Virus record (IMG/VR): IMGVR_UViG_3300015371_000001
Span: 1 to 64,000 of that record
Origin: a virus
Strand: one strand, 5' to 3'
Length of the DNA: 64,000 bases
Part shown: piece by piece, positions 9,112-42,175 of the stretch
Position numbering within the stretch: the first letter of the stretch is position 1
How the letters are laid out: every line of letters begins with the position of its first letter
The notes under the pieces: generated by a model
Database searches by the model: none
What the model was told of the DNA's origin: nothing
Seen by the model: only the letters and a program-made list of their open reading frames with translations
Program-made: the position numbers and the translations under genes

Positions 9112-9123
9112 CAACAGCTTCAT

Positions 9124-9371: not shown

Positions 9372-9402
9372 CGAGGGGGATGGTTCGCCCACCCCTTCAC
9401 CT

Positions 9403-9497
9403 GGAGAGGTGGCTGAGTCCGGTTTAAGGCGACCGTCTCGAAAACGGTTGGGGCGTTGATAGCGCCTCCGTGGGTTCGAATCCCACTCTCTCCTCCA
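9403..9497 (+). tRNA. tRNA-Ser(CGA)
   Basis: ACCGT-CT-CGA-AA-ACGGT; long variable arm; CCA. Confidence 0.9.
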
Positions 9498-9498
9498 T

Positions 9499-9573
9499 GA
9501 CCATGTAGCCCAAATTGGCAGAGGCGTCCGGTTCAGGCCCGGAAGGTTGTGAGTTCGAATCTCACCTTGGTCA
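9499..9573 (+). tRNA. tRNA-Leu(CAG), short variable loop
   Basis: TCCGG-TT-CAG-GC-CCGGA. Confidence 0.85.
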
Positions 9574-9578
9574 CGCAA

Positions 9579-9653
9579 GCGCGAGTAGCCCAACTGGCAG
9601 GAGGCACCGGCTTCAAAACCCGGACAGTGAGAGTTCGAATCTCTCCTTGCGCA
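9579..9653 (+). tRNA. tRNA-Leu(CAA), short variable loop
   Basis: CCGGC-TT-CAA-AA-CCCGG. Confidence 0.8.
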
Positions 9654-9703
9654 CGAGGCCGGAGGTCAACACTGTCGTGTTGGGGTCCCTCCGGCTTCAC
9701 CTA

Positions 9704-9793
9704 GGTGAAGTGGCGGAGTGGCTGAACGCGCCGGGTTGCTAACTCGGTAGACGGGAGACCGTCTCGTGGGTTCGAATCCCACTTTCACCTCCA
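9704..9793 (+). tRNA. tRNA-Ser(GCT)
   Basis: CCGGG-TT-GCT-AA-CTCGG; long variable arm; CCA. Confidence 0.9.
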
Positions 9794-9794
9794 G

Positions 9795-9876
9795 GTCCAT
9801 GTGGCGGAATTGGCAGACGCGCACGGTTGAGGGCCGTGTGCCGCAAGGCGTCCGGGTTCAAGTCCCGGCTTGGACA
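9795..9876 (+). tRNA. tRNA-Leu(GAG)
   Basis: CACGG-TT-GAG-GG-CCGTG; variable arm. Confidence 0.9.
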
Positions 9877-9880
9877 CGTA

Positions 9881-9954
9881 CGGGTTGTGGCGCAGTTTGG
9901 TAGCGCACCGGGCTGGGGGTCCGGGGGTCGCTGGTTCAAGTCCAGCCAACCCGA
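9881..9954 (+). tRNA. tRNA-Pro(GGG)
   Basis: CCGGG-CT-GGG-GG-TCCGG. Confidence 0.9.
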
Positions 9955-10068
9955 CAATGGGGTGATGATCGTGAGCCCTTGGACCTAGGCTGCCTGGCGG
10001 CGGAGGATGGTCCCACCAAAGTCGAGTGAGACTCAACGCCAGGCGTCGAGCTTGACAAACCGATCCAT

Positions 10069-10142
10069 CTGGGAGTGGGGCAGCTTGGTAGCCCGCGTGC
10101 GTCGGAAGCACGAGGTCGCAGGTTCAAATCCTGCCTTCCAGA
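10069..10142 (+). tRNA. tRNA-Pro(CGG)
   Basis: CGTGC-GT-CGG-AA-GCACG. Confidence 0.85.
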
Positions 10143-10144
10143 CT

Positions 10145-10217
10145 GTGCTGGTAACGCAAAGGCAGACGTGCCGGGTTGTGTCCCCGGAACATGCGGGTTC
10201 GACCCCCGTCCAGCACC
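10145..10217 (+). tRNA. tRNA-His(GTG)
   Basis: CCGGG-TT-GTG-TC-CCCGG; C73. Confidence 0.85.
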
Positions 10218-10259
10218 CGAGACCCAGGGGAGGGGGTCTGAAAAGATACCTCCCCCAAT

Positions 10260-10342
10260 GGCGCGGCTGGGCACTGGCTTGAGCCCCCCTGACTGTAAAT
10301 CAGACGCCGCTGGCTGTGTAGGTTCGAGTCCTACCCGCGCCA
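10260..10342 (+). tRNA. tRNA-Tyr(GTA)
   Basis: CTGA-CT-GTA-AA-TCAG; variable arm. Confidence 0.85.
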
Positions 10343-10400
10343 CTGTGGTTCACGCTCTGATCTAGACCTAGCTTCCTACGTCGTTCGTGAACCACACCTT

Positions 10401-10471
10401 GGTGCTGTGGCCGAGAGGCTAGGCGCTGGCCTGCAAAGCCAGATACGCCGGTTCGAGTCCGGCCAGTACCT
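10401..10471 (+). tRNA. tRNA-Cys(GCA)
   Basis: CTGGC-CT-GCA-AA-GCCAG; U73. Confidence 0.9.
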
Positions 10472-10507
10472 CGATCCCTGCCTGGGATACCAGCAGGCAG
10501 GGCTCAT

Positions 10508-10583
10508 GCCCTGGTAGCACAACGGATAGTGCATCTGGCTACGAACCAGAAGGTTGCAGGTTCGAATCCTGTTCAGGGCTCCA
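10508..10583 (+). tRNA. tRNA-Arg(ACG)
   Basis: TCTGG-CT-ACG-AA-CCAGA; CCA. Confidence 0.9.
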
Positions 10584-10584
10584 A

Positions 10585-10657
10585 GGCGGTGTAGCTCAGT
10601 TGGTAGAGCGCCGGACCCATACCCCGGAGGCCCCTGGTTCGAGGCCAGGCATCGCTA
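10585..10657 (+). tRNA. tRNA-Met(CAT), elongator type
   Basis: CCGGA-CC-CAT-AC-CCCGG. Confidence 0.8.
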
Positions 10658-10663
10658 CGTCAC

Positions 10664-10736
10664 GCCCCGTTAGCTCAGTGGACAGAGCAACGGAGTCCTA
10701 TCCCGTAGGTCCAGGGTTCGAATCCCTGACGGGGCT
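10664..10736 (+). tRNA. tRNA-Arg(CCT)
   Basis: ACGGA-GT-CCT-AT-CCCGT; A20. Confidence 0.85.
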
Positions 10737-10772
10737 CTCCCGATCCGCCACACGTCGGTCAACGTGTAGACG

Positions 10773-11012
10773 ATGAACCTGAAGTTGAAGGAGTTCAGCA
10801 TTCACTCCTGCCCACTTAGTCCGTGGTGTAGGAAGTACGACGATGAGCCGCCGTGGCGGTTCCACATCAACACCCCCTGGTGGCACTTTGCCTTTGCACT
10901 CCGACCGGGTGCGAGGTTCGTTCGGATCAAGGACTACTACTCCGGTAAGCCGGAGGAGGAGTGGGAGTACATCTCCGAGTGGACGATGTTCAAGCGTCGT
11001 CAGGAGCCGTGA
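10773..11012 (+). CDS. Small hypothetical protein within the tRNA array
   Basis: Occupies a tRNA-free gap; coding-like codons. Confidence 0.45.
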   Translation: MNLKLKEFSIHSCPLSPWCRKYDDEPPWRFHINTPWWHFAFALRPGARFVRIKDYYSGKPEEEWEYISEWTMFKRRQEP

Positions 11013-11168
11013 GGGTACGACGAGAGTGGCTGGCACCCGGCCATCGTTGGGTGTGCGAGTCATGTCACCGGCAAGACGTGGTGCTTGATTGGTTCAAGAA
11101 CAAGAAGGGACACCAGGTCACCTTCTGGCAGTGCATAGGTTGTTCCCGCGAAGAATCGCGGTGTCGAT

Positions 11169-11243
<75 letters not shown>

Positions 11244-11356
11244 CGGGGACTCTCTCATTCCCCCCACAGGGAGAGACCCTGGTGGACGCAGAGCGATGAG
11301 TCGCGCTTCGCGTCCCCGCTCCCTGCCCAGCGGGCGATGTTCGGGCAGGGAGCTTT

Positions 11357-11429
11357 GCCCCGGTAGCTCAGTGGATAGAGCACCGGCTTCCGAAGCCGTA
11401 GGTCGCAGGTTCAAATCCTGTTCGGGGCT
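11357..11429 (+). tRNA. tRNA-Arg(CCG)
   Basis: CGGC-TT-CCG-AA-GCCG. Confidence 0.9.
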
Positions 11430-11516
11430 CGCTATCGGCACCACTGTTGAGTTACACTGATTGTCCCTGGCTGGTAGGCGTCCAAGTTCGCTTGGGAAAC
11501 ACCAGTCAGGGCTCGT

Positions 11517-11593
11517 AGCGGAGTAGAGCAGTTCGGTAGCTCGCCAGCCTCATAAGCTGGAGGTCGTGGGTTCGAATCCCATCTCCGCCACCA
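11517..11593 (+). tRNA. tRNA-Met(CAT), initiator-like
   Basis: A1:C72 mismatch, GAGCAGTTCGGTAGCTC D-arm, CT-CAT-AA loop, CCA. Confidence 0.85.
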
Positions 11594-27865: not shown

Positions 27866-30265
27866 GTGCTGGAGTTCCAGGAGGACCCCGCACGCGAGGA
27901 GTACGAGGACGCCCTGCTGGCGCTGGCCTGCTCTCTCGCGAAGGACGCCGACCCCAACTCGAATTGGGTGGAGAAGGCGGGTGGTCTGCCTGACTACATT
28001 TGCCGGGTGGCCAAGCACATCAAGGAGAAGGGCGCTACCACCTCCAGTGCTATCGCCCAGGCCATCTCGACTATTAAGCGCTGGATCGCGACTGGTTCGC
28101 CTGAGACTAAGGCCAAGGCGTCGGCTGCCATCGCGCAGTGGGAGAAGATGAAGGCCAGCACCAAGCTGACCGGCCTTCCGATCCATGAGGACATGGACCT
28201 GGTCATGTTGACCAGCGGTCAGTCGTCCGGCGTTGAGGTGAACGACGACTACCTCCAGTACATCGCCAACAACGAGAACGCCGCGATGCTGTCGGCGTGG
28301 TGCTGCGGCACCGGCATCCCGTCCGGCGTACTTGAGTTGGCCAACACCTTCGAGGAGGCAGAGCACCCGCGTCACCCGGACGGTCGATTCCGGAATGCGG
28401 GAGCCGGTGCCGCACTGGACAAGGCAGCGGCGGCAGCCTCCAGAGCGTTCTCCACGGTTGGCAAGGCGCAGTACAAGGAGCGTCCCAACGGTGGGTTGAC
28501 CTACATCGGCGCGTCGTTCGACAAGACGAAGAAGGCTCCGAAGGCAGATCCGAAGTCGACGCCGACGAGTACTGATAAGCCGAAGGGCGGAGGAGACGCC
28601 AAGCCGAAGGCTCCGATCCCGCCCAACACGTCGTTGGACGAGAACGGTAATCCTCTGTCGACGGAGCAGAAGGACAAGGAGATTCGTGCGCTGGACACCA
28701 ACCAGCGGAATCTTTACTACGCTTCGACAAAGGCCGGGTACAACCATAACCAAGCGTTGCGGTCGGCGTACTCGATCTGGCCAAACAAGGACATCTACGG
28801 CTATAACGGCCCCGATTCTCTTGAGGGTCAGCAGGCGCTCCTTGAGGCCAACTACGAGATCGAGCGGACGCCTGGAACGTACTACCCAAGCTCGGTCCCA
28901 GGCTGGCTGAAGAAGCGGTTTCAGGGGCGTGACCGGGTAGGTCCACAGCGTTACAGCAGTGAAGGTGGTGTGCCGAGTGCTGCGGCCTATAACAAGTCGG
29001 TTGGCCTCGACACAGGTTTCTCTGCTGAAGGTAACGATCCACTGTTGGTCACACTTAGCGGCAAGGAGCCGTACGGCAGTGTGACGTACGCCGATCCCGG
29101 CTATCAGTCGGATGGCGTCAAGCGGTACCCCCTGGATTCAGAAGGCCACTGCCGTGCGGCGTGGTCCTACATCAACATGCCCAAGAACGCCTCGGCGTAC
29201 TCGCCGGATCAGTTGGCCAAGATCAAGGCGAAGATCAAGAGGGCGCTGGCCAAGTACACGAAGGAGGAGCCGGTGTCAGCTTCTATGGGAGACAGCTTCC
29301 TGGAGGCGTGGGACGACCGAGTTGAGCTTCACGGCGTCGCGAGTCAGCCAGGTTATGCATTCCTGCACAGCCCGAGCCCGCAGGTCTACTCAGCCGCACA
29401 GCGTCTCTACGAGACAGGCCGTCGGCGTGGACTTGATGTCACGTCGGCGCAGGCCGTCATCGCACGGCTGGAGAATGCCGATTCATACCGTCGGCACATC
29501 GCAGCAGGCGGCAACCGCATGATGCGGACCATCGAGGGTCAGACGGTGCCGGTCGGCAAGGGCAGCCACGACGACATCAAGTCGGGTGGCGGACTCAACA
29601 AGCCGATCAGCGTCCCGGTGCTGGACCTGCTCGAAGGTGCAGACGACCTCGAAGGTGCTCAGGCCAAGGCTCGGGACCGTGCGCTCAAGGCGCTTCGGGA
29701 CGGAGACGATCAGCGGGCAGCCGAGATCCTGGACGCGGCGAACCAGGACACGCCGAATAAGGCGTTCACCGACGCCATTGGGCGGCTCGGGTACGAGTCG
29801 GTGCCGGACGGCAATGAGTATGACTCCTTCGCTGAGGAGGATACGGACGAACCGAAGGAAGTGGACTCTTACGACAAGGGTCCAGGCTCTCTGCTCGACA
29901 AGCAGCCTGACAAGTTCGCTGAGCCCGCTCAGGAGGCCCCACAGGCCGCTCAGGCGAGCGCGGAGCCACAGGCGAAGGTCAAGGGACGTGTGTCCGGAGA
30001 AGGCCCCTCAAAGAGCCCTACAGCGGCTCCGAGTACTGGCGGGATGAGCCAGCCGACCGGCCTGGACATTGGAGGTGGAGCAGACAGCGCAGCAGCGGCT
30101 CCGGTTGCGGCTTCGTTCCTGCGACAGTTCTCTGACAATGAGGTTGAGCTTGCGGTCCGCCGCGTTCGCGATGTCGCCTACTGGCACGCACCGAAGGGAA
30201 CGCCCATTCGTGCGGCTCAGGCGGCAGGCGGTGGTGCTGGCCCAAAAGCCTCAGCGGCGGAGTAG
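27866..30265 (+). CDS. Multidomain putative internal head polyprotein (includes a DUF6582-like module); zero-frame product of a frameshift gene
   Basis: NWVEKAGGLPDYI module, HPRHPDGRF motif, KRYPLDSEGHCRAAWSYI module. Confidence 0.65.
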   Translation: MLEFQEDPAREEYEDALLALACSLAKDADPNSNWVEKAGGLPDYICRVAKHIKEKGATTSSAIAQAISTIKRWIATGSPETKAKASAAIAQWEKMKASTKLTGLPIHEDMDLVMLTSGQSSGVEVNDDYLQYIANNENAAMLSAWCCGTGIPSGVLELANTFEEAEHPRHPDGRFRNAGAGAALDKAAAAASRAFSTVGKAQYKERPNGGLTYIGASFDKTKKAPKADPKSTPTSTDKPKGGGDAKPKAPIPPNTSLDENGNPLSTEQKDKEIRALDTNQRNLYYASTKAGYNHNQALRSAYSIWPNKDIYGYNGPDSLEGQQALLEANYEIERTPGTYYPSSVPGWLKKRFQGRDRVGPQRYSSEGGVPSAAAYNKSVGLDTGFSAEGNDPLLVTLSGKEPYGSVTYADPGYQSDGVKRYPLDSEGHCRAAWSYINMPKNASAYSPDQLAKIKAKIKRALAKYTKEEPVSASMGDSFLEAWDDRVELHGVASQPGYAFLHSPSPQVYSAAQRLYETGRRRGLDVTSAQAVIARLENADSYRRHIAAGGNRMMRTIEGQTVPVGKGSHDDIKSGGGLNKPISVPVLDLLEGADDLEGAQAKARDRALKALRDGDDQRAAEILDAANQDTPNKAFTDAIGRLGYESVPDGNEYDSFAEEDTDEPKEVDSYDKGPGSLLDKQPDKFAEPAQEAPQAAQASAEPQAKVKGRVSGEGPSKSPTAAPSTGGMSQPTGLDIGGGADSAAAAPVAASFLRQFSDNEVELAVRRVRDVAYWHAPKGTPIRAAQAAGGGAGPKASAAE

Positions 30266-30294
30266 GTAGCGCGCTCTCGCCGGTTACTAGTGCT
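30241..30294 (+). promoter_or_regulatory. -1 ribosomal frameshift signal (C CCA AAA plus H-type pseudoknot)
   Basis: In-frame X XXY YYZ heptamer, 7-nt spacer, stem1 30255-30263/30273-30282, stem2 30268-30272/30290-30294. Confidence 0.7.
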
Positions 30295-33200
30295 CTCCGT
30301 GGTCACGATGACTACGGCGCTCGGATCAAGGCCGTAGAGGGTCAGATCCCTCGTCCGGGCCACCAGTACACCTCTCAGGACCTTGCGGCCATCCGCGCTC
30401 AGCGGAAGCCGTATGGCGATTTCGAGAGTGGGGCGCTTGGTGGCGGACCTACGGCTAACGCTGACCGGATCATGAGCCGCACCGAGGAGGGGATGATGGC
30501 GGCGGAGGCTGGCTGGAATCCGGCTCAGCAGAAGGATCTTGACCGGCGTGCAGGTCTGCTCCGAAAGATGGGTGACTACGAAGGAGCCGACCAGTTGCTC
30601 CAGGACGCTGGCGAGTTTGACCGGACCATCGCGCCGTTCGCACCTCCGGAGAACTACAAGTCGGCAGTGCCACAGGAGGAGATCAACCGGCTGCGGTTCG
30701 GTAACCAAGGCAAGAAGGAGGAGATGACTCCGGCTCAGCAGAAGGATCTTGACCGGCGTGTAGGTCTGCTCCGCAAGATGGGTGACAACGCCGGAGCCGA
30801 TCAGTTGCTCCAAGACGCTGGCCAGTTCAACAAGACGAAGAAGTCCACCAAGAAGCTGATGAAAGCGGCTCAGGCGTATCAGGCAGCCGACAACCCGGAG
30901 GACCGTAACCAAGCTCTGGAGAAGTTCCAGAAGGCTTGGGACAATTCACCGACCAAGTTGAAAGAGGGGGCGAGTTTCTTCACTGGTCGGGATATGACGC
31001 AGCCCCAGAACTTCCGTGATCTAGGGAGTAACTTCCGGACGTTGGTTGGTGCTCGGCAGTCTCGTCCGGTCGGAGGCGTGAAGCCTGAGCGTGGAGGCAT
31101 CAAGCAGCCTGCGCTTCAAGCGCCGTCTATGCAGATTGATCAGAAGGCCGGTGATCGTGTTGAGCAGATCAACCGGGAGGCTCGGCAGCTTCAGAGTGGA
31201 GACAACAACTTCCGCACCCTTGTTGGTGCTCGGCCTGCGCGTGTCGGAGGCGTGAAGCCTCAGCGTGGTGGTGTGAAGCCTCAGCGTGGTGGTGTGACGC
31301 GCGCGGTGACGCCGTCGGTTGTTGAGCCTGGAGCCGAAGCGAAGCCAGGTAAGCCGAAGCAGGGATTCGATCCTTCGACCGGTGTGACGACGTACCCGAA
31401 TGGTGAGAAGTTCGACATCAACGGGATGCATGTTGTGTCGCCTGGAGTGGCCGAGGATGAGGGTGGCGCGAAGTACAAGATCACCCCTGAGCAGGAGAAG
31501 TTCCTTCGAGGAGCCAGCAGTAACGACCGGACTCAGAGCACCGGCAAGTTGACGTACCCGAAGTTCAACACCTCGCCTGGTGCGACGACGACTCAAGCCC
31601 AGGTGTCGGAGTCCAACGTCATTGAAAGTGCGCGGAAGGCGCTTCGAGCACGTCGTGACCGGAAGTACGACGAGAAGAAGGCCAGCGGCGAGATCGTGTC
31701 GGAGCCCAAGATTTCGAGTGGTTTGGAGAGGGCTTCGAAGGGCTTCACACCGTCGCAACTGGCTGTGTCGCCGGACAAGATCGCACCACGGGGCTCAGCA
31801 GAGCGTAAGCGCCAGGTGGCAGCCGACAACGCGGAGTACCAGCGTTCGGCGAATGATGCACGTCTCGACCGTTCTGTGGCTCAGACGCCGGTCGGTAAGG
31901 CCATCTCAAATGACCAGCGTCGTCGTCAGGGCGGCGGAGATGCTTCGCGGAGTCGTGCGCCTCAGCACCGAGCAGTCACCCGGCAGGAGCAAGAGGCCAA
32001 GTTCCATCAGCAGTACTTGGACTACGACCGAACGAAGAAGCCAGGCGGAGCGAAGAACGCCAAGGCACAGCCGTTCGACCGTACGCAGCGCGGTGGCGAC
32101 CTGACTGATCGTCTGGCTCGTGACCGTGGTCGGAAGGACCTTCAGGGCGCGCAGGGCCGTCGACAGACGAATCAGGCGCTTGGTGAAGGCGCACGTCGTC
32201 GTGCGGCGAACCCGGCAGCGTATAAGGCTCGGCCAGGACAGCCGAACCCTCCGCGTAAGACAGGTCAGCCGTTTGCTGATTATCTGGGTGCGTACGCCCA
32301 GGAGGAGAAGCGCGCGCGCGGTCAGATTCAGTCGAATCGTGAGAAGCGTTCGTCGTCTCGACAGTCTCAGACCCGTGGTTCCGTCGCGAAGAACCCGCAG
32401 GGCTACGGCAAGATTCTAGATAAGCCGAATGTGCCTCCGGAGACTCCGGCTCAGCGGTTGGAACGTCGCTTGCGTGAGCGCCAGGCTCCACGGCCCAACG
32501 ATGTTTCGGTAGAGACTCGTAGCGGTAAGAGGATGAAGGCAGAACGAGGCTCCATCGGCGAGGCGATGTTGAAGTACCGGGGGCCTGAAGGCCGACCAGG
32601 TCCAGCGCCTAAGACAGGTGCCGGACGACCAACATCACGGATGGAATCGCAGACCCGAGGCTCGGTTGATAAGCCGAAGTACGGCCCTGTCGTTCTTGGG
32701 CCGCGTCGTGGTCAAGCTGCGGCCAATGAGGCAGCGGCCCGTGGCGTACGCCAGGAGAACTTCACCACGGCTCGCGATGCCAAGACGGGCAAGAAGATCG
32801 ACCTGCCAGTGGGTCGCACCTTCGCAGCGCAGGACAAGGGCGAGCCGCGTGCGTCACAGTTCCGGCAGGACCCCAACTACAGTCGAGGGCAGTTTAAGAA
32901 GCCTGACCAGAATCCTTGGGCTCGGACCACACCGATGCAGGCAGCGTCGAAGCCTGGTACGCCGCAGAATGAGAGTCCTCGGTTCAAGCAGTTGGTCCAG
33001 CGCTCGAAGGACCTCGCGGCACACCCAGACTCGCCGGAGGCGAAGGCCGAGAAGAAGAAGGTCGACCGCGAGATTGCGCATAGCCCAGAGGTTCGAGGCG
33101 GCGGCAACCTGGCCGACAAGACGGCCAAGAAGCCGAGTTCATTGACCGACACCGGTACCTCGCTTGGTCAACAGGATGCGACGAAGGGTCGTCGTCTGAG

Positions 33201-34344
33201 TGGTCAAGGCACCGGGGCAGGTCGCGCTGCGGCTGCCAAGCGGAATGCTGCGGTGGACGCTGAGATCGCTCGGCGTCGTGGCGGAGAGCCAGCGGTGGCT
33301 CCGGAGAAGAAGCCGAGTTTGGCGAGAAGGCTCGCGGCGGATGCTACGAAGCCAGGCGGTAGCGCCCAGGCGTACAACGATCTCACTGCTGGAAAGATTG
33401 TGGGTGAAGCAACCCCAACTGAGATTCAGCGGTCGCGCACCCGTACGGGTATTCGGTCTCAGGGACTCGCTGGGTTGATGCAGCGGGGTATGGAAGCTAC
33501 CGACCGGGAGCGTGCGGCTCGGAAGTCGCAGTACAGCGCCAACCTGGAGAAGCCTGACGTGGACCGTGGGCCGCTGGAGAAGCCTCCAACCGTGCTGATC
33601 CAGCCTCAGACGTTGGAGAAGCCGACCGGTAAGGAGATCGGCGATACGAGGCCAGCACGTCAGTTGCAGGCCGCGTTGCAACAGAGCGCTACGGATTTGG
33701 GACGCGCTGAGCGTGCGACAGCGGATGTGCAACGTGCCGAGAATCCAGTCGACCAGAAGGCGCTCCAAGACAAGGCCGCAGAGCTTCAGCGTCAACATCC
33801 CGGCCTGACCCCAGCAGGGGCGAAGGACATGGCGACGATCAATGAGGAGGGATTCCAGGTCGGCGCAGTTAATGGGACGTTCAATGCCTTCATCAACCTC
33901 CCTGGCCAGCCAGAGGCGATGCCTGACGAGATGGGCTTCTTGGGGAACCCGAGCGATCCGTTCTACGGTGCAGGTGATCTGGAGTCGCCGGAGGCCGCGC
34001 AGGGCTTTGGTGAGGCGATTAACCGACTGCGGGACTTGGGCTATGAACCACGCGGTACCGATGTGAACGACTACGACAACCGGGTTGGTCCGTTCAAGGG
34101 CATTCCTAAGACAGCAGTGGGTCGAGAGCTTCAGTACATCCGTAGCCGGTTCGCCAGTCGGAACAAGGCACAACAGGCGCGGTTGCAGCAGGGTGACCCG
34201 ACTCAGTCGAAGGAAGGCCAGGATGCTCTGGCGCTGGAGCGGAAGCGGGACAAGATCACTCGCAACTTGAGCGAGAAGGAGAAGCGTGATCTCCTCTCGA
34301 AGCGGATCAGGCGTCAGCAGGCTCGTTTGCTCGCAGCAGGATGA
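30247..34344 (+). CDS. Large low-complexity basic protein; likely -1-frame extension of 27866 ORF
   Basis: Frame open from ~30148, well upstream of first ATG 30472; internal repeats PAQQKDLDRR, NFRTLVGAR, GGVKPQR. Confidence 0.7.
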   Translation, partial: SLSGGVGSALSPVTSALRGHDDYGARIKAVEGQIPRPGHQYTSQDLAAIRAQRKPYGDFESGALGGGPTANADRIMSRTEEGMMAAEAGWNPAQQKDLDRRAGLLRKMGDYEGADQLLQDAGEFDRTIAPFAPPENYKSAVPQEEINRLRFGNQGKKEEMTPAQQKDLDRRVGLLRKMGDNAGADQLLQDAGQFNKTKKSTKKLMKAAQAYQAADNPEDRNQALEKFQKAWDNSPTKLKEGASFFTGRDMTQPQNFRDLGSNFRTLVGARQSRPVGGVKPERGGIKQPALQAPSMQIDQKAGDRVEQINREARQLQSGDNNFRTLVGARPARVGGVKPQRGGVKPQRGGVTRAVTPSVVEPGAEAKPGKPKQGFDPSTGVTTYPNGEKFDINGMHVVSPGVAEDEGGAKYKITPEQEKFLRGASSNDRTQSTGKLTYPKFNTSPGATTTQAQVSESNVIESARKALRARRDRKYDEKKASGEIVSEPKISSGLERASKGFTPSQLAVSPDKIAPRGSAERKRQVAADNAEYQRSANDARLDRSVAQTPVGKAISNDQRRRQGGGDASRSRAPQHRAVTRQEQEAKFHQQYLDYDRTKKPGGAKNAKAQPFDRTQRGGDLTDRLARDRGRKDLQGAQGRRQTNQALGEGARRRAANPAAYKARPGQPNPPRKTGQPFADYLGAYAQEEKRARGQIQSNREKRSSSRQSQTRGSVAKNPQGYGKILDKPNVPPETPAQRLERRLRERQAPRPNDVSVETRSGKRMKAERGSIGEAMLKYRGPEGRPGPAPKTGAGRPTSRMESQTRGSVDKPKYGPVVLGPRRGQAAANEAAARGVRQENFTTARDAKTGKKIDLPVGRTFAAQDKGEPRASQFRQDPNYSRGQFKKPDQNPWARTTPMQAASKPGTPQNESPRFKQLVQRSKDLAAHPDSPEAKAEKKKVDREIAHSPEVRGGGNLADKTAKKPSSLTDTGTSLGQQDATKGRRLSGQGTGAGRAAAAKRNAAVDAEIARRRGGEPAVAPEKKPSLARRLAADATKPGGSAQAYNDLTAGKIVGEATPTEIQRSRTRTGIRSQGLAGLMQRGMEATDRERAARKSQYSANLEKPDVDRGPLEKPPTVLIQPQTLEKPTGKEIGDTRPARQLQAALQQSATDLGRAERATADVQRAENPVDQKALQDKAAELQRQHPGLTPAGAKDMATINEEGFQVGAVNGTFNAFINLPGQPEAMPDEMGFLGNPSDPFYGAGDLESPEAAQGFGEAINRLRDLGYEPRGTDVNDYDNRVGPFKGIPKTAVGRELQYIRSRFASRNKAQQARLQQGDPTQSKEGQDALALERKRDKITRNLSEKEKRDLLSKRIRRQQARLLAAG

Positions 34345-34376: not shown

Positions 34377-36215
34377 GTGAGCGGACTTGCAGGCTACCTC
34401 TCGTCTCCCCTGGACGAGGCGAGCCTTCCGCTAGAATCTATCTTTGCTGAAGAACCTGTACCGCTCACCACGTTCGTGCAGGACCGGAAGTTCCTGGGCA
34501 ACCCCCCGCTGAGTCCGATCCAGTACCAGGCAGTCCGGCACATCGAGCAGATCTATTTCCCAGAGACGTACAAGCTGATGGCTCAGCAGTTCGGGGAGTA
34601 TTGGGAGCCGGTCAGGCCGATCAATTTCGCCACGCTCCAGTGGGGCAAGGGTTCTGGCAAGGACCACATCTGCCGTGTCTCCAGCTTGCGGATCGCCTAC
34701 CTCTTGATCTGCCTGAAGTCACCGCAGGAGTACTTCGGCATTGCGCCGCAAGACACGATCCACATGCTCAACGTTGCGTCCAGCCGACTCCAGGCAAACA
34801 ACGCATTCTTCACTCCGTTGGTCAAGGCCGTGCAGCGTGGCTGGTTCGCCGATCACGCTCACGACAAGCAGGACGTGATCATCTGGAGCAAGAACATCGA
34901 GTCCATCTCCGGTCACGCTGACGCCGAGTCTCAGGAGGGCATGAACCTCATCTTGGGGATCGCCGACGAGATCGACGCCTTCCGCTCCAAAGAGGAGTTG
35001 TTGAGCTACCGAGCCAAGCAGGCGCGTGAGCCTACTCGTTCTGCTGAAGCCATCCTCAAGATGCTGCGTACGTCGGCCAGCACCCGGTTCCCTCAGACGT
35101 TCAAGATCGTCCAGATCTCCTATCCGAGGTACCTGGGCTCCACGATCCAGCAGTTGACCAGGCGGGCCAAGCAGGACTTCAAGGAGAAGGGGCCGCGTTC
35201 GCGCTACTACGTGGACGGCCCTCGGGCTACTTGGGACGTACGGCCCGGTCTCACGAAGGAGAACTTTGCCGAGGACTACGTCGAGGACGAGATCATGGCG
35301 CGCTCGATGTATGAGTGCAAGCCAGCCCGAGCCGTTGATGCGTACTTCCGGAACCTTGATGCACTCCACGCCTGCGTACGGGACGAGGAGTCCCCGATCA
35401 AGGTGGACTACAAGCTGGAGAAGGAGCGCGGCTCCAAGGTGTGGGTGCCGCGCTATCACTTCGACCCAGGCTTCTACCCGATCAAGGGTGCGAGCTATGT
35501 GATCCATGCGGACATGGCGGTCAAGAACGACCGAGCCGGAGTGGCGATGTCCCATGTCGTGCGGTGGGACACCCAAGAGTTCACCAGTCACGACGAGGAG
35601 GGCGGCGAGGAGCGCTGGCACGATCAGCGTCCGTTCGTGAAGTGCGACTTCATCTTCAGCTTCCAGGCTGATCTGAACGACAAGCCGCCACGAGAGATCC
35701 AGATTCGGTGGGTCCGGCAGTTGGTGTTCGAGCTACTGCGGCAGGGCTTCCCCATCGCACGGGTGACGTTCGATCAGTTCGAGTCGCGTGACTCCATGCA
35801 GATCATCGAGTCCAAGGGAGTCGAGACTGAGCGTGTCTCACTGGACCGTGACGAGACGGCATGGCGGACTCTGCGTGACTTGATGTATGAGGTGCGCTTG
35901 TCGATGCCGATGAGCAAGATCCTGATTGAGGACGAGCTTCCGTCATTGCAGAAGTTGTCCAACGGCAAGATCGACCACCCGCCGATGGGGTCCAAGGACG
36001 AGGCCGACGCGCTCGCCGGGTCAGTTATGGGCGCTATCGAGATCGGTGGTGCTGAGGACCCCGATGGGCAGCGGGCGTACTTCGGCAGTGACCGGTTCGG
36101 TGGGGCACTCGGACCGGGCGGCAAGTTGTTCAACCAGCCTCGGTCGCATCGGTATGACGAGCCAGTCGTCAGCGACACCGTCGGCTACTCGGTGAGTTGG
36201 TGGGGTGACGGATGA
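34377..36215 (+). CDS. Terminase large subunit
   Basis: GKGSGKD Walker A, IADEID Walker B, C-terminal nuclease IHAD...FDQF...KIDHP..SKDEADA. Confidence 0.9.
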   Translation: MSGLAGYLSSPLDEASLPLESIFAEEPVPLTTFVQDRKFLGNPPLSPIQYQAVRHIEQIYFPETYKLMAQQFGEYWEPVRPINFATLQWGKGSGKDHICRVSSLRIAYLLICLKSPQEYFGIAPQDTIHMLNVASSRLQANNAFFTPLVKAVQRGWFADHAHDKQDVIIWSKNIESISGHADAESQEGMNLILGIADEIDAFRSKEELLSYRAKQAREPTRSAEAILKMLRTSASTRFPQTFKIVQISYPRYLGSTIQQLTRRAKQDFKEKGPRSRYYVDGPRATWDVRPGLTKENFAEDYVEDEIMARSMYECKPARAVDAYFRNLDALHACVRDEESPIKVDYKLEKERGSKVWVPRYHFDPGFYPIKGASYVIHADMAVKNDRAGVAMSHVVRWDTQEFTSHDEEGGEERWHDQRPFVKCDFIFSFQADLNDKPPREIQIRWVRQLVFELLRQGFPIARVTFDQFESRDSMQIIESKGVETERVSLDRDETAWRTLRDLMYEVRLSMPMSKILIEDELPSLQKLSNGKIDHPPMGSKDEADALAGSVMGAIEIGGAEDPDGQRAYFGSDRFGGALGPGGKLFNQPRSHRYDEPVVSDTVGYSVSWWGDG

Positions 36216-39200
36216 CGACTGACATCGTGACGCTGGCCAACGACGATGATCCACAGGCCGTCGTACCGCGTCCGAAGGAGGACAGCCAGGAGTTCGGTAT
36301 CGCGCTGCGGTTGCCGTTCTCCACGCCGTACGTCCCGCCCCGAGGCGTTAAGAAGCGGTCCAAGGACGACCTCTATGAGGTGTTCAATGAGAAGGCGGAG
36401 GATGAGCCAAACATCCTCCAGCTTCAGGCCATGCGGCGTACGGATGGTCAGGCCCGTGCGTTGTACCGACTGATCACCCTTCCGATTCGGTCGGCACTGC
36501 GTACGGCCAAGTTCGTTCCTGCGAAGGATGGCGAGCTTGAGGCTGAGTTCGCTGAATTGATGCTGACCTTGCCGTACTCGGGCGGCGGGATGCAGACGCC
36601 CATGCGGACCGTCATCGCTCAGATGCTCATGGCGGTGTTCGATGGGTACTCCGCGTTTGAACAGGTGTTGTGGCGTCCGAAGAAGGGGCCGTTGGAAGGC
36701 ATGTGGACGCTGCGCAAGATCGCGCACCGGCCAGCCGAGACGGTCACCTTCATCACCGACGACCACGGTGAGTTTGAGGGCATCCGGCAGCGGACGGTGA
36801 TCCACGGCAAGGAGATCGATGAGTTCATCGATGCTCGGTCGTGCATCTACTTCGCCGTGCAGGAGGAGGAGCGCCCGTTCTACGGCGTGAGTTACTTCCA
36901 GGCGGCGTTCAGTCACTTCGACAAGAAGGTGAAGCTCTACTACATCTCGCACCTGGCAGCCCAGCACCGAGCCGTCGGTGCTCGGATCGGTACGGCACCG
37001 GCCAGTGCGTCCAAGGCAGAGCGGGACACCTTCCTGAAGCACATGGAGGACTTTGGCTTCGCTCAGGCGATTCTGCTCCCCAAAGACTTCGAGATTGAGC
37101 ACCAGTACCCGACGGCCAACGCGAGCTTCCTGGACCTGATCAACCACCACAACAGCCAGATGTCCAAGAGCGTGCTCGCCGCGTTCTTCGATGACAGCCA
37201 GGGTGGTGGGGCCGACAGCGCGCTGGTCGACTTCGGCAAGCAGGACGACTCGATGTTCGTGATGATGCTCCAGGCGTTGATGGACGACCTGGCTGGTCTC
37301 ATCAACGACAAGCTGATCCCCAAGTTCATCGACTGGAACTTCGGCTCAGAGAAGTACCCCGAGTTCAAGTTTGGCACCTTCACCAATGAGCAGAAGGAGA
37401 TCATTCACTCCACGTTCGAGAAGCTGGCCGTGGCTGGTCAGACCCTCACCGTGACTCACGAGTTCATGCGCGAGCTTGAGAAGTACATGGCCGAGGAGCT
37501 TGGGCTGGACAACATCGACTACGAGGACATTGACGCCAGAGAGCGGGCCGACAAGGAGAAGGCTGATCTCCAGGCTCAGGAGATGGGTCAGTTCTACGGT
37601 GGCAGCGGAGGCTTCCCACCCAAGCCCAAGGCTCCAGATGGTCCTGACGGCCCACAGCCGTCCAAGCCGATTGGTCAGGGTCCAAGTGGTAGCAACAGTG
37701 GCGGCGTACGGCCACCTGGCAGCGAGCCGGATACGTCAGTGCCATTCGCGGCCACCTACACCACGGGCGGCAACACGGTCGAGTTGACCTGGGACCCGAC
37801 GCTCCACCCGCGCGATCCCATCGGGCAGTTCGCTCCAGCCGATGGATCGAACAAGGAGCCGGTCAAGGAGTCGAGCACCCACATCAAGAAGCCGTTGGAG
37901 CCTGAGCACCAGGCGAGCGCAGAGCCTAAGGGTGGATTTGCAGAGCCACGTCCTCGCGATACGGCGTCAAGCGATTCCAGTAGTAGTACGTCGTACGATC
38001 ACACGACTGAGGACAAGCCACCGAAGATGCCACCGGAGCTTGAGGGCCGGTCGCTGGAGTCGCTGAAGAATGAGCGCCGTCGGTTGGGTCGGGAGATCTT
38101 GCAGAGCAGCGGCAACCTCAAGCGCGTGTTGATGCTGGCGCAGCAGGTGGTCAAGATCAACGACGGCATCGAGGCGCTGGAGTACCAGCGCGAACAGCAC
38201 CGGGACCGTATCCATCAGCTACTTCAGGCCAGTTCTGCGAGCAAGGCCGCGCTCACTCAGGAGGCGGATGAGGTGTACTCGACCGAGGGCAAGACGGATG
38301 TGGTCGAGCTTGCCACCATGTGGCAGGAGCGACTGCACCCACGAGACAATGACGGCAAGTTCGCCGAGAAGCCTGGTACCGGTGTTGCCCGAGCCTTCAA
38401 GGCGTTGGACACCAGTGCCGAGGTCTACGCCAAGCCGGGAGGCCGTGGGACAGCGCACTACAAGCTGTTCAAGGATGGCAGCGCGCAGTACGTCAACGCG
38501 AGGATGGAGTCCACCGATCTAAAGCGTGATGTGGCGCTGAGGCGGATCGCGAAGCAGGGGTTCGAGAAGCAGGCAGGCGACTTCAAGCCAGCGAGGCCAC
38601 GCCGCCCAAAAGCTGACGCCCCCGCTAGGGGGCTCTCCGACAAGATCAAGAAGCCCCCGGACACGCCTCAGCAGAAGGCGATCCTCCGCAAGAGCAAGAC
38701 GGCTCAGAAGGTTCGGCGTGAGTGGCCGGTCGGCACACGAGTGACGGCGAATACGAAGGAGCCCACCGGACGCGAAGGCACCGTTACTCGCCACGTACCA
38801 GGGACCAACGCTCAGGGCGGTCACCTGAACGTCAAGTGGGACAACGGTACGGAGGGTCGGCACTCGCCGGTCAGCTTGAAGAAGGTCACCAGTGAGGACC
38901 GAGTCCTCATCGGGCGCGAGTGGGACCGGAAGTCCGCTCGGGAGTGGACTGAGTCGAAGCCTCTGAGTCCAGAGCAGTTGAAGGTGGTGGAGGACTACAC
39001 CGGGGGAGAGGGCTACAAGGGAACCAACCGTGGTCTGCGTGGTCGCGCCAAGATGACGCCGAAGATCGAGTCTGAGGTTGCTGGCTTGGATTCGATCATG
39101 GAGCCGCTGCCGCAGGACATCGTCGTACGGCACTTCACGCATCGCCGGGAGTTCCCCAAGAACGTGCAGCCTGGAGATCAGTGGAGTGACCCCGGCTTCC

Positions 39201-42175
39201 TGTCGACCACGATCTCGGGCAGCACGGCAGATCGGAAGCACATCAGCAACTCGCTCGCTGGGATCAAGACTGAGGACATCCTGAAGGGTAAAGAGGACCA
39301 GGCTGTTGAGGTCGTCTTGCATGTGCCCGCTGGAGTCAAGGGCCGGTACCTGGAGCCGTGGGCACCGAAGAAGTTCGGCTACGAGAAGGAGCTTCTGCTA
39401 GATCGAGGTCTCAAGTGGCAGGTGGAGCGTGCCGAGCGGATGAACGGCAACGGCGAGTTGTCGAAGGTGACGTTGCTGGGGTACCCCGCTGATCAACAGC
39501 CTCAGCGTTCACTTGATTCGCTTAACCCAAGCCGTCATGGCGTATTTGAGGACTACACGACTGGCCGAGCTTTTCGTGCATCTGCTCCCTTGGCGAGCAA
39601 CATGACCACTCTTGCAGAGACTAGGGGAAAGGACCCGGACGAGACGCTTACGGTCTATCGTGGCGTTCCCAAGTCGGCTCCTGACGGTCTCCAGCCAGGC
39701 GACTACGTTACGACGATGCGTCAGCTTGCGTCCGACTACGCGGGTGACGGTCGTGTGATAGCAGCGAAGGTTCGTTATGGCGACATCTTGGACGACCGCG
39801 AGGACCCCGGCAATGAGTCCGAGTTCATCTACCGTCCTCAGCCGAATCGGTATTGGGTCAAGCCGGTGTCGGCGGACAAGGTCATTAAGCGTTCTGACTT
39901 CAGCAACCCGGACACACCTCGTACCCGAGCCGTATCACCTGAGGAGTTCGCTCTGCTCTCCGATGAGGGGCGAGCCAAGCTGGAGTCGTTCCGGCAGGAC
40001 TCAGCACCACCGGAGGGTCTGGACAAGAACTTTGATGCACTGACCGATCAGGCGTTCAAGGACACCCGTGAGCCGTGGGGCGGTATGACCATCGATGCCC
40101 GGTCGGGTAAGCCGGTGGACCCTGGCAAGGAGGCGTACGCGCTCTCGGTGAAGAACGGGGTAGCCTCGGTCACGATCCCTGCGGACTCGGACGAGGCCAC
40201 CTTCAAGAAGGCGATGAAGGAGGCGCGGGAGCGCTTCGACAACGACCTGCGATACAAGCAGATCTCGCTGGGCATCTTCCATGACGACGACACAGGTCAG
40301 ATCGAGTTCGATCCAGTGCTTGTGGTAGACAACCTGCACGACGTAGACACCATTGGGTCGTACACCCACGCTGTTGGAGGAGCGTATGGCTTCCATGACG
40401 GCAACGGCTACTGGCCACCGTACGTAGAGGAGAAGCCAGGTGAGCAATTCCAAGAAGCCAGGGCAGCGGAAAAAGTCCAAGGACTTCAAGGGTCCGGGGC
40501 AGTGGCTCCGCCGAGCCAAGAAGGCTCAGGGCAACGAGCCGGGTCAGGAGGCAGAGACCTCGGAGCCGTCCTCCGAGGAGCCCGAGACAAGCGAGCCCAA
40601 AAACGAGTAGAGGCGTACCACCCGAAGGTCAAGGGGTTCGGAGACAACGCAGCCGTCGAAGATGCGATGCACAAGACGGCGGTGGTGCTTGGCGACACTG
40701 ACCTGATCGACCACCTGACGATCAAGGGTGCTCCTGCGAAGGAGTTGGTGAAGGAGGGTGGCGAAGGCGCGGTTGCCAACCATCATCAGTCGTCTCGTGC
40801 TGGCGAGAACGACGTGATCACGTTCTCGAACGAGTTGTTCCCAGCGAAGGATGCGCCGAACCTTGGGATGGGCTCCAAGGACAGCAGCATGGTCGATGAC
40901 GTTGTCTACTCCGCCAGTGTGGGCTTCAACGAGAAGGCCGAGAAGAACCTGACGCAGCCTCAGTTGACCGTGGCTCACGAGATGGGCCACGAGATCACGC
41001 TGGACGTTGAGACCGAGGCGCTACGAGATAATCCACGGCTGTTCCAGGACGAGGTCATGGTGCCGTTGTCCAAGGCGCTGGGGGTTGACCCACCCGATGT
41101 GCCGGAGGACGGCGCTGGGCTACGTGGAGCCATCGAGGAGTGGCGCGAGAAGAACGCTGCGGTGATTGCCAAGAAGGTGTCGACGTACGGCTCCTCGATG
41201 GTGCCGGAGATGTACGCCGAGTTGTGGGCCAAGTACGTCGATGACCCCGACGCGCCAGGTCCGGCCAAGGCATTCGGCGACGGGATTAAGCGGGTCCACG
41301 CTCAGGCCAAGCACGCCGACATGCAGACGGCTCAGAATCGGTTCGATATGCACGTTGGTGACTGGCCAGCACCGATGTCGAACGACCGGAGTAAGAAGGC
41401 GTTGGAGGAGCGGACGGCGATGGCCATGTTCTGGGCCAACTCCAGCGAGTACAACAACAACGTGACTGATCCGTCGTTCCCCAAGCCGCTGGACCGAGAG
41501 TGGACGCAGAAGGAGATCGATGACGCCCACGCCAACAATCCAGGCTTGGACGATGTGCTCAACATTGACAACGTGACCTTCCGGAATCGAATCCAACAAC
41601 CCCTCACCGTGTGGTGGGGCCAGCCAGCCGGAACTGTTGATCTCCGACCGGGGACCAACATCGTGGACGCAGGCTACGAGGCCGTCACCACAGATCCGTC
41701 GAAGCTGCCTGAGGGGTACGACAAGTTCAAGCTCTTGCTCGCACCGGGTACGCCGTACCTGCCAGACGATCCGAATGTGGGCAGTACTCCGATTCATGGA
41801 CTCGGTCGGGACACCAACTGGATCGTAGTTGGCAAGGAGAAGGACGGCACCACCTTGGTGGAGGTCAGCGCACCTCGTGAATGGGAGCACGTCGATGCGG
41901 GGACGGTGGACTTCGGACCTGATTCGGACCCGACCGACGGAGGTCGTTTGACTCCGGATGCCAAGACGGGTGCTGAGGCAGGCTACGAGAACACGTCAGG
42001 CGATGGCGGCGATACAACCGGAGGCGACCCGTTCGCCGACCAGCCTGACCAGCCGTTGGGCGGAGCAGGCTTCGGTCAGATGGACGATGCGGAGTACGAG
42101 CGGATCAAGGCCAAGTTCGCTCGCCGTAACAAGGCGGCACAGGAACGACTGCGGAAGGGCAAGAAGAATGGCTGA
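36212..42175 (+). CDS. Portal protein (DUF935/Mu gp29-like) fused to polyvalent cargo: ADP-ribosyltransferase-like and zincin domains
   Basis: N-terminal ~460 aa portal-like after terL; ART R..FLSTT..EKE; HEMGH...EMYAE. Confidence 0.8.
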   Translation: MTTDIVTLANDDDPQAVVPRPKEDSQEFGIALRLPFSTPYVPPRGVKKRSKDDLYEVFNEKAEDEPNILQLQAMRRTDGQARALYRLITLPIRSALRTAKFVPAKDGELEAEFAELMLTLPYSGGGMQTPMRTVIAQMLMAVFDGYSAFEQVLWRPKKGPLEGMWTLRKIAHRPAETVTFITDDHGEFEGIRQRTVIHGKEIDEFIDARSCIYFAVQEEERPFYGVSYFQAAFSHFDKKVKLYYISHLAAQHRAVGARIGTAPASASKAERDTFLKHMEDFGFAQAILLPKDFEIEHQYPTANASFLDLINHHNSQMSKSVLAAFFDDSQGGGADSALVDFGKQDDSMFVMMLQALMDDLAGLINDKLIPKFIDWNFGSEKYPEFKFGTFTNEQKEIIHSTFEKLAVAGQTLTVTHEFMRELEKYMAEELGLDNIDYEDIDARERADKEKADLQAQEMGQFYGGSGGFPPKPKAPDGPDGPQPSKPIGQGPSGSNSGGVRPPGSEPDTSVPFAATYTTGGNTVELTWDPTLHPRDPIGQFAPADGSNKEPVKESSTHIKKPLEPEHQASAEPKGGFAEPRPRDTASSDSSSSTSYDHTTEDKPPKMPPELEGRSLESLKNERRRLGREILQSSGNLKRVLMLAQQVVKINDGIEALEYQREQHRDRIHQLLQASSASKAALTQEADEVYSTEGKTDVVELATMWQERLHPRDNDGKFAEKPGTGVARAFKALDTSAEVYAKPGGRGTAHYKLFKDGSAQYVNARMESTDLKRDVALRRIAKQGFEKQAGDFKPARPRRPKADAPARGLSDKIKKPPDTPQQKAILRKSKTAQKVRREWPVGTRVTANTKEPTGREGTVTRHVPGTNAQGGHLNVKWDNGTEGRHSPVSLKKVTSEDRVLIGREWDRKSAREWTESKPLSPEQLKVVEDYTGGEGYKGTNRGLRGRAKMTPKIESEVAGLDSIMEPLPQDIVVRHFTHRREFPKNVQPGDQWSDPGFLSTTISGSTADRKHISNSLAGIKTEDILKGKEDQAVEVVLHVPAGVKGRYLEPWAPKKFGYEKELLLDRGLKWQVERAERMNGNGELSKVTLLGYPADQQPQRSLDSLNPSRHGVFEDYTTGRAFRASAPLASNMTTLAETRGKDPDETLTVYRGVPKSAPDGLQPGDYVTTMRQLASDYAGDGRVIAAKVRYGDILDDREDPGNESEFIYRPQPNRYWVKPVSADKVIKRSDFSNPDTPRTRAVSPEEFALLSDEGRAKLESFRQDSAPPEGLDKNFDALTDQAFKDTREPWGGMTIDARSGKPVDPGKEAYALSVKNGVASVTIPADSDEATFKKAMKEARERFDNDLRYKQISLGIFHDDDTGQIEFDPVLVVDNLHDVDTIGSYTHAVGGAYGFHDGNGYWPPYVEEKPGEQFQEARAAEKVQGLQGSGAVAPPSQEGSGQRAGSGGRDLGAVLRGARDKRAQKRVEAYHPKVKGFGDNAAVEDAMHKTAVVLGDTDLIDHLTIKGAPAKELVKEGGEGAVANHHQSSRAGENDVITFSNELFPAKDAPNLGMGSKDSSMVDDVVYSASVGFNEKAEKNLTQPQLTVAHEMGHEITLDVETEALRDNPRLFQDEVMVPLSKALGVDPPDVPEDGAGLRGAIEEWREKNAAVIAKKVSTYGSSMVPEMYAELWAKYVDDPDAPGPAKAFGDGIKRVHAQAKHADMQTAQNRFDMHVGDWPAPMSNDRSKKALEERTAMAMFWANSSEYNNNVTDPSFPKPLDREWTQKEIDDAHANNPGLDDVLNIDNVTFRNRIQQPLTVWWGQPAGTVDLRPGTNIVDAGYEAVTTDPSKLPEGYDKFKLLLAPGTPYLPDDPNVGSTPIHGLGRDTNWIVVGKEKDGTTLVEVSAPREWEHVDAGTVDFGPDSDPTDGGRLTPDAKTGAEAGYENTSGDGGDTTGGDPFADQPDQPLGGAGFGQMDDAEYERIKAKFARRNKAAQERLRKGKKNG

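Follow-up and report, generated by a model that had tools for sequence, protein, structure and literature searches.

Probable programmed -1 ribosomal frameshifting between two large open reading frames at the front of the head module of an uncultured soil phage

The window analysed here is the whole 64,000-nucleotide stretch that forms the first 64 kb of a 141,276-bp virus contig from an uncultured soil phage (IMG/VR record IMGVR_UViG_3300015371_000001). Two large open reading frames (ORFs), ORF1 and ORF2, follow each other in it directly ahead of the large terminase (TerL) gene, and the locus raises the question whether ORF2 is a gene of its own or the continuation of ORF1 in another reading frame. 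We consider it probable that the two constitute one translational unit, in which a programmed -1 ribosomal frameshift near the end of ORF1 would produce a predicted fusion of 2159 amino acids (aa). This reading is based on the switch of the coding frame at the junction, on the rarity of the slippery heptamer located there, on the recurrence of the same cassette in the genome and on the position of a leader motif. The features of the junction are as follows.

27866-30265, plus strand: ORF1, 799 aa, the zero-frame product.
30137-30208, plus strand: cleavage-like sequence NEVEL/A and the leader, NEVEL/AVRRVR-DVAYWHAPKGTPI (slash, putative cut), ORF1 aa 758-781 (motif 764-781).
30241-30247, plus strand: slippery heptamer C_CCA_AAA in ORF1 phase (CCA 30242-44, AAA 30245-47, preceded by C30241).
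30247-30471, plus strand: first 75 codons of the -1 frame, without ATG, GTG or TTG, reachable only through a shift.
30255-30294, plus strand: predicted stimulatory structure beginning 7 nt past the heptamer; hairpin 30255-30282, nine pairs with one bulge.
30263-30265, plus strand: TAG stop of ORF1, five codons past the slip site and within the hairpin.
30472-34344, plus strand: ORF2 counted from its first ATG, 1290 aa, an orphan.
30484-30498, plus strand: possible independent start of ORF2, GAGGAGGGG followed by ATG ATG (30493/30496) in the ORF2 frame.
34126-34194, plus strand: C-terminal helix of ORF2, resembling the extreme C-terminus of the portal-cargo fusion (42092-42160).

Past the heptamer ORF1 continues with five sense codons (GCC TCA GCG GCG GAG) before its TAG, and the -1 frame, open from 30148 to 34344, reads SLSGGVGS... 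from 30247. Between 30182 and 30471 no ATG, GTG, TTG, CTG, ATT or ATA occurs in this frame, and ATC, present four times, is the sole start-like codon. The predicted fusion would combine 794 residues of ORF1 with 1365 residues of the -1 frame, with ...GAGPK-SLSGGVGSALSPVTSALR as the trans-frame junction peptide. A first-pass annotation of the window had reported the in-phase heptamer five codons ahead of the TAG, the -1 frame open for 75 codons ahead of its first ATG at 30472, and the size of the fusion; all three were recovered as it had described them.

The coding character of the junction was followed with a three-phase codon model trained on 27 long plus-strand ORFs of the genome, ORF1 and ORF2 being excluded. 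The 68 codons of 30268-30471 gave a log-likelihood ratio of +24.5 when read in the frame of ORF2, the two remaining frames giving -26 and -53; with the same model real genes score 17.7-58 (5th-95th percentile), and among random first-order Markov sequences kept open the 99th percentile lies at 17.5 and none of 1000 reached 24.5. In sliding windows of 30 codons the coding signal passes from the frame of ORF1 to that of ORF2 at approximately 30245-30260, and within ORF2 every 68-codon window is coding-positive. The signal is concentrated in 30325-30471 (+25.1 over 49 codons), and a minimum of 49 codons ahead of the first canonical start appear to be translated; having no canonical start before them, they are reachable only from ORF1.

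The slip site itself is a rare sequence in this genome. Heptamers of the type X_XXY_YYZ (Y = A/T) stand in phase three times per 28,887 codons in ORFs of at least 200 aa, and the chance that one falls in phase within the 39-codon overlap of the two frames is about 0.003-0.004. AAA makes up 3.1% of the Lys codons, and in-frame CCA-AAA, for which 0.28 occurrences are expected, is seen twice in long ORFs, preceded by C both times. The class V_VV.A_AA.R is among the most efficient -1 frameshift classes measured in E. coli (Sharma et al. 2014, PMC4066793). The junction holds the parts of a canonical -1 cassette, namely the in-phase heptamer, a nearby zero-frame stop with an open and coding -1 frame, and a predicted downstream structure. 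As a separate observation, a block of 36 tRNA genes at window 5722-11593 includes tRNA-Lys(UUU) and tRNA-Pro(UGG), which decode the AAA and CCA of the slip site, AAA being just 3% of the phage Lys codons.

The predicted structure consists of a first stem in which 30255-63 pairs with 30273-82 (nine pairs and one bulged U, -13.2 kcal/mol) and of a second one in which 30268-72 pairs with 30290-94 (five pairs including one G-U, stacking energy -8.9), with a 7-nt spacer and loops of 4 and 7 nt. A closed hairpin located 4-9 nt past the site reaches -12.7 to -13.3 kcal/mol, and 4% of 300 random sites reach -12. In a scan for H-type pseudoknots the fold proposed by the first-pass annotation was the best candidate (-13.3 plus -8.9, no penalties) and fell into the top 5% of 400 random windows. 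The pairings, spacer and loops it had listed thus exist; as an established fold the pseudoknot did not hold, since a nested fold of comparable stability competes with it (-20 kcal/mol, starting 6 nt past the heptamer, top 10% of genome windows), and the pseudoknot is a possible one of two comparably stable folds. According to the folding models the first stem is sufficient as a stimulator without the pseudoknot, and a stimulator at the correct distance is plausible. No relevant Rfam entry matched the junction.

All slippery heptamers of the whole contig were scanned in addition. CCCAAAA has six plus-strand copies, of which those at 30241, 38605 and genome position 121702 are in coding phase. 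All three in-phase copies are followed, 5-7 nt downstream, by a closed GC hairpin (-12.7, -13.3 and -11.2 kcal/mol), the 5th percentile of the hairpins at 300 random sites being -11.7 kcal/mol; at the three out-of-phase copies the hairpins have -10.0, -5.0 and -0.4. Three such hairpins out of three, each from the top 3-7% or so of random sites, are hard to ascribe to chance or to sequencing errors. The further sites, including one that served as an internal control, are these.

Window 38605-38633: sister site C_CCA_AAA at codons 799-800 of the portal fusion, with a 6-nt spacer and the perfect hairpin GCCCCC-GCUA-GGGGGC, -13.3 kcal/mol.
Genome 121702-121708 (L084:1703-1709): third C_CCA_AAA, 12 codons before the stop of a 197-aa ORF, with GCUCCC-GAGA-GGGAGC 5 nt downstream, -11.2 kcal/mol.
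Genome 66601-66611 (L085:1602-1611): G_GGA_AAA_AAG in a 234-aa ORF, the tail-chaperone slip site (internal control).

At 38605 the -1 frame reads AGC and then TGA, and a shift would yield an 801-aa portal devoid of the ADP-ribosyltransferase and the later cargo; by analogy with dnaX, such a shift to a stop could mix cargo-less and cargo-bearing portal subunits. At 121702 the -1 frame stays open for 76 more codons with a coding score of +17.3; a peptidoglycan-binding-domain protein is encoded about 900 nt downstream. The control site at 66601 is preceded, at a distance of 12-20 nt, by the SD-like (Shine-Dalgarno-like) sequence GGAGGCGGAGGA and is followed by a -13.3 kcal/mol hairpin, and its -1 frame ends exactly at the start of a 2618-aa gene, the presumed tape measure; judged by this layout it is a canonical tail-assembly-chaperone frameshift arrangement. 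A tail-chaperone frameshift of the G/GT kind was also considered for 30241 and was rejected, for the site lies upstream of the genes for terminase and portal, and the genuine G/GT-type site is the one at 66601. It is quite possible, if still short of probable, that CCCAAAA with a 5-7 nt spacer and a GC hairpin is a portable cassette that doses capsid contents in this phage and probably in soil actinophages more widely. In that event 30241 would decide how many giant basic polypeptides receive a capsid-addressing leader, 38605 would make the cargo-less 801-aa portal beside the 1987-aa portal-toxin fusion, and 121702 would extend a third protein by 76 residues, so that the stoichiometry of the injected or packaged cargo would be governed by frameshift efficiency, and not by the number of genes or the strength of promoters.

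The leader motif at the end of ORF1 occurs once in the six-frame translation of the present 141-kb genome, twelve codons before the slip-site lysine; in the zero frame it heads about 37 aa, and after the shift it would head about 1397 aa. Its counterparts were found in one related contig and in two other phage contigs. In the related one, which is the closest TerL relative (L091, with 62% identity in TerL), the pattern RR[VI]RTPEGA[KR][FY]Y.APIG[ST]PIV is present in five copies, two of them inside an 840-aa ORF (after EMEF/S and AMQF/T) and three at gene N-termini, one of the latter after the portal. An IMG/VR DNA pattern scan gave four further copies in two other contigs (L103; L105/L106). 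Among the nine copies six stand 1-4 residues past a start codon and three after F/S, F/T or L/T, and all nine head open frames, from 85 aa (ended by the end of the locus) to 663 aa. Within a polyprotein the motif follows EMEF/S, AMQF/T or QLQL/T. It was also observed that the motif heads each cargo-like module near the terminase and portal genes (L091:3351-8086 and 13052; L103; L105/L106), modules with a ParB-like DGHHRW and a zincin HESGH motif among them.

The RRVR...AP.G.PI leader looks like an undescribed capsid-addressing or processing signal, as far as its sequence and placement can tell. Since it stands in ORF1 just before the slip site and heads modules elsewhere, the module body would have to be ORF2, and this position is, at the level of motif comparison, the strongest argument for ORF2 being a module body that begins in the ORF1 frame. 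A second motif, HPR..(D)G.F, has one copy in ORF1 (window 28364) and two in the portal fusion (37805 and 38336), all of them 6-9 residues after V-E-L-[AT], and it looks like a putative second type of module leader beside the RRVR type.

ORF2 has a pI of 10.2, a net charge of +78 and low hydrophobicity; it is rich in A, R, G, Q, K and P and consists mostly of low-complexity sequence with internal repeats, its C-terminal 250 aa or so looking more ordinary. The C-terminal helix is 12/23 identical to the C-terminus of the portal fusion (E 0.022, tblastn within the genome), a weak match and the sole non-self match of ORF2. Charge, hydrophobicity and helix fit a putative protein that is packaged and DNA-associated or is ejected. 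Among the repeats of ORF2 (window 30526-30900 and 31252-31297), PAQQKDLDRR.GLLRKMGD..GADQLLQDAG, roughly 36 aa long, occurs in duplicate, and GVKPQRG is encoded by 2.2 perfect tandem copies of a 21-nt unit. The internal repeat begins only at PAQQKDL, its similarity not extending 5' of ATG 30472, and the 75-aa extension (30247-30471) has no similarity to anything else in the genome.

The alternative that survives best, and that we nevertheless regard as rather improbable, is that of two independent genes, with ORF1 ending at TAG 30265, ORF2 starting at ATG 30493/30496 or 30472, and the heptamer and hairpin being coincidental; 30266-30492 would then be either a leader that is not translated or what is left of a gene that was once longer. 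According to the first-pass annotation no evident Shine-Dalgarno (SD) sequence serves ORF2, and here it was mistaken: GAGGAGGGG, which it had overlooked, lies 2-5 nt before the ATG pair and makes a good ribosome-binding site, and internal in-frame ATG codons with a 5-mer SD are uncommon (11 per 26,222 codons). GGAGG with a spacer of 5-8 nt is common among the genes of this phage. The equivalent modules of L091 are separate genes with their own starts, and the stretch 30247-30324 has no coding signal, as independent genes would have it; by contrast 30325-30471 scores as coding with no canonical start before it. Coincidence would further have to account for an in-phase heptamer with a chance of about 0.003 in the overlap, in a genome where all in-frame CCCAAAA sites carry hairpins. 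ORF2 would also lack the leader borne by every comparable module in the motif-holding contigs, and the ORF1 leader would head 37 aa only. No promoter-like or terminator-like site was detected between ORF1 and ORF2 in the promoter and terminator scan. A leaderless ORF2 started at ATG 30493/30496 may be made alongside the fusion.

Less probable still is a one-base indel in a continuous gene of 2159 aa (e.g. A5 instead of A4), either as a sequencing or assembly error or as a recent mutation in the sampled population. In its favour, homopolymers are prone to indels, the metagenomes behind the contig are of low depth (Logan word depth 3-5), and in relatives the leader and the body share one frame; against it, indel errors at A4 are rare in short-read data, the sequencing platform not being on record. 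Independent Logan contigs were compared over 29400-31200, stretches of the runs X2, X3 and X5 without contig cover being uninformative. Over 29906-30540 a 635-nt contig from run X1 agrees at every position, one from X5 (30083-30254) is identical to its end and reads the heptamer plus 7 nt (CCCAAAAGCCTCAG), and one of X3 (30246-30558) is identical as well. The cassette recurrence argues more strongly against an indel than this agreement does, for an indel leaves unexplained the perfect in-phase heptamer with its correctly spaced hairpin and the two sister cassettes. A non-canonical start at ATC 30325, 30346 or 30391, which would make ORF2 42-49 codons longer than from ATG 30472, agrees with the coding signal being strong only from about 30325 and with GAGGG 4 nt before ATC 30346, yet it is very improbable, as ATC is a very rare bacterial start codon, CTG, ATT and ATA are absent between 30182 and 30471, and the heptamer, the hairpin and the leader position would be left unexplained.

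Several points weigh against the frameshift. With the strong SD at ATG 30493/30496, ORF2 is not strictly dependent on a shift. Codon usage gives no signal, whichever frame is read, over the 26 codons that follow the slip (30247-30324); this stretch overlaps the RNA structure and encodes a Gly/Ser/Ala linker. For the 53 nt that follow the heptamer, the nested fold of minimum energy does no better than shuffles (z -0.58), and the structure statistics come from our own crude scans. The local leader copy is diverged, with agreement at 11/17 positions and a 3-residue gap, and the search pattern was written after this copy had been seen, the core alone being still unique in the genome. The X1 contig is the only one to bridge the site by at least 31 nt on both sides and X1 is possibly the source sample, so that the contigs exclude an assembler artefact and not every error. 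Finally, no orthologue of the ORF1 C-terminus, of the junction or of ORF2 was present in any collection searched, and conservation of the slip site in relatives is the usual decisive evidence for a frameshift.

In the proposed frameshift most ribosomes would read ORF1 to its TAG and produce the 799-aa head-module protein, and a fraction of them would pause over the GC-rich hairpin and slip back by one base at C_CCA_AAA, tRNA-Pro re-pairing from CCA to CCC and tRNA-Lys from AAA to AAA. The slipped ribosomes would go on for 1365 codons in the -1 frame and make a minority product of 2159 aa. The leader, or the domains of ORF1, might take this fusion into the prohead, where ORF2, as a highly basic and disordered polypeptide, would be the body of a cargo module; the prohead maturation protease may then cut NEVEL/A and free a basic polypeptide of about 1400 aa. 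The frameshift would thereby set the amount of leader-bearing, loaded ORF2 relative to ORF1. The first-pass annotation had spoken of an internal protein, a description not supported as stated, and we only infer such a location. If this mechanism is true, the frameshift goes beyond appending a small decoration domain: in a minority of the head-protein molecules, of fixed size, a cargo of 1365 residues is coupled to the part that does the addressing. This would account for the way in which phages restrict the copies of giant internal proteins in each capsid, and recoded genes that gene callers break into a pair of 'hypothetical proteins' would gain a further class. ORF2 should in that case be recorded as joined to ORF1, and the 227-nt 'gap' between them as coding. 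Testable handles on the addressing of prohead cargo in Magritte-like actinophages, which have cultured relatives, are offered by the leader motif and by the portal fusion's sister site.

ORF1 is composed of a conserved helical N-module (aa ~10-110) and a DUF6582 domain (aa 399-465), to which long linkers modelled at low confidence and a C-terminal part of low complexity are added. The DUF6582 assignment (PF20223, aa 399-463) is at 2.5e-14 in Pfam, with 53.8 bits against a cut-off of 27.3, which places ORF1 in the family. In an exhaustive HMMER search ORF1 gave 2459 matches, all to the two small modules, and in an AlphaFold2 model of aa 1-500 the pLDDT exceeds 90 solely at aa ~35-100 and ~401-465; Foldseek with this model returned no PDB match at E 0.001 or better, and nothing was found for ORF1 among solved structures by sequence. 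The N-module is 44% identical to gp11 (227 aa) of Microbacterium phage Magritte, whose gene is located directly before the terminase. Elsewhere DUF6582 is fused to Peptidase_S78 and Phage_capsid, to Mu-like_Pro (protease/scaffold) or to Phage_capsid_4, and in other phages DUF6582 genes lie directly after portal/MuF genes; in the literature searched the domain is not mentioned.

Neither for ORF2 nor for ORF1 beyond residue ~670 was a homologue found. Searches by blastn and tblastn against 50,697 phage records gave nothing for the ORF1 C-terminus, the junction or ORF2, and in IMG/VR pattern scans with ORF2 and ORF1 the only matches were those of ORF1 to DUF6582. There was likewise no match in a word search of 5.8 billion proteins with the whole ORF2 and with residues 1080-1365, none in a scan of JGI metagenomes with the first 500 aa of the -1 product, and no ORF2 homologue in ESM Atlas.

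A TerL alignment search retrieved six closer IMG/VR loci, all with adjacent TerL and portal genes. In Magritte and in three of these loci (L089, L090 and L093), which have enough upstream sequence and a match to ORF1, the order is a 148-aa protein, the N-module protein, TerL and portal; the N-module match is a few hundred bases before TerL and therefore leaves no space for ORF2. An epimerase-like gene is kept in L090, L091 and Magritte. In L091 the same slot holds three genes, of 840, 190 and 451 aa, the first encoding the N-module together with the ParB-like DGHHRW module and the last the zincin HESGH motif. Two further candidates were uninformative: a 153-kb contig (L003, TerL 36%) without comparable upstream genes and without CCCAAAA, and Streptomyces phage Jay2Jay (TerL 32%), in which the gene order is different.

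The mechanism proposed for 30241 is ordinary and canonical, of the types of dnaX, IS3, lambda G/GT and A2; the payload and the threefold use of the cassette are the interesting parts. The context differs from the known cases in that the extension, a separate orphan resembling cargo, exceeds the zero-frame protein in length, and in that the slip site splits a leader from its module. The head site of Lactobacillus casei phage A2 is said to read C_CCA_AAA followed by a stem-loop. A2 uses -1 frameshifts in its major head gene (gp5A/5B) and in its major tail gene (Garcia 2004 and Rodriguez 2005, as cited in PMC5009743). The likeness is that a -1 shift close to where a virion gene ends gives a short product and a C-terminally extended one. 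A modest domain is added there to a capsid or tail subunit, whereas here the added 1365 aa, outnumbering the residues of the zero-frame protein, would form an orphan basic polypeptide of their own, and the zero-frame gene does not encode the capsid protein. With lambda gpG/gpGT (Xu, Hendrix, Duda 2004; reviewed in PMC5009743) the locus would share a pair of products in fixed ratio, a slip site near the zero-frame stop and a downstream frame without a start; it differs in the proteins, in the size of the extension and in the placement of the site before the terminase, not the tape measure. E. coli dnaX (tau/gamma) and IS3/IS911 orfAB (PMC4066793) have in common with 30241 the heptamer class V_VV.A_AA.R, followed after 5-8 nt by a stem or pseudoknot; 30241, unlike them, lacks a clear upstream SD stimulator, and its protein would be extended, not truncated.

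Portal-MuF and MuF-VIP2 fusions and giant processed virion proteins are described in actinobacteriophages of Microbacterium (PMC7302621), and pairs of MuF-like and VIP2 genes were flagged by PRFect as possible frameshifts (PMC10885494). The present phage resembles these in its high-GC lineage, in giant modular virion-associated proteins beside the portal and in cargo that occurs as fusions or as neighbouring genes. In contrast to them, ORF1 and ORF2 have no MuF or toxin domain, and the leader is split from the module by the slip site: Pfam and PHROG revealed neither MuF (PF04233) nor an effector domain in them, the MuF-like and ADP-ribosyltransferase domains of this region belonging to the neighbouring genes at 36212 and 42331, and what ORF1 and ORF2 share with MuF-type cargo neighbours is limited to the leader, the cleavage-like motifs and the genomic position. 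The two studies (PMC10885494, PMC7302621) neither demonstrate nor describe a frameshift that joins cargo modules, and frameshift loading of giant capsid cargo was not found in the literature searched.

The genomic setting is that of an actinophage-like genome with 62% G+C, the contig being 96% complete (CheckV), and short parts of the window are contained in rhizosphere metagenome runs of 2012, 2016 and 2018, no RNA run being listed among those that contain it. The gene following ORF2 is listed here.

34377-36215: TerL, 612 aa, with 49% identity over 563 residues to Magritte gp12.

This 612-aa ORF has no match in Pfam, in PHROG or, by sequence, in PDB; by homology, however, to gp12, annotated as 'terminase' in the 133-kb Magritte genome, and to the terminases of Streptomyces phages of about 133 kb (32% identity), it is clearly a large terminase. 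TerL is followed by a fusion of 1987 aa in which the portal is joined to an ADP-ribosyltransferase and further cargo; next come a MuF-like protein, a protease/scaffold of the Mu type and a capsid protein of the E type. Judging from this gene order, ORF1 and ORF2 are the front of the head module, and together with the context of DUF6582 it bears out the 'head-region' label that the locus had been given at first. The TerL orthologue of L091 (L091:8600-11521) is 973 aa long, and its match is interrupted by an insert of about 330 aa, which may be an intein or a homing element.

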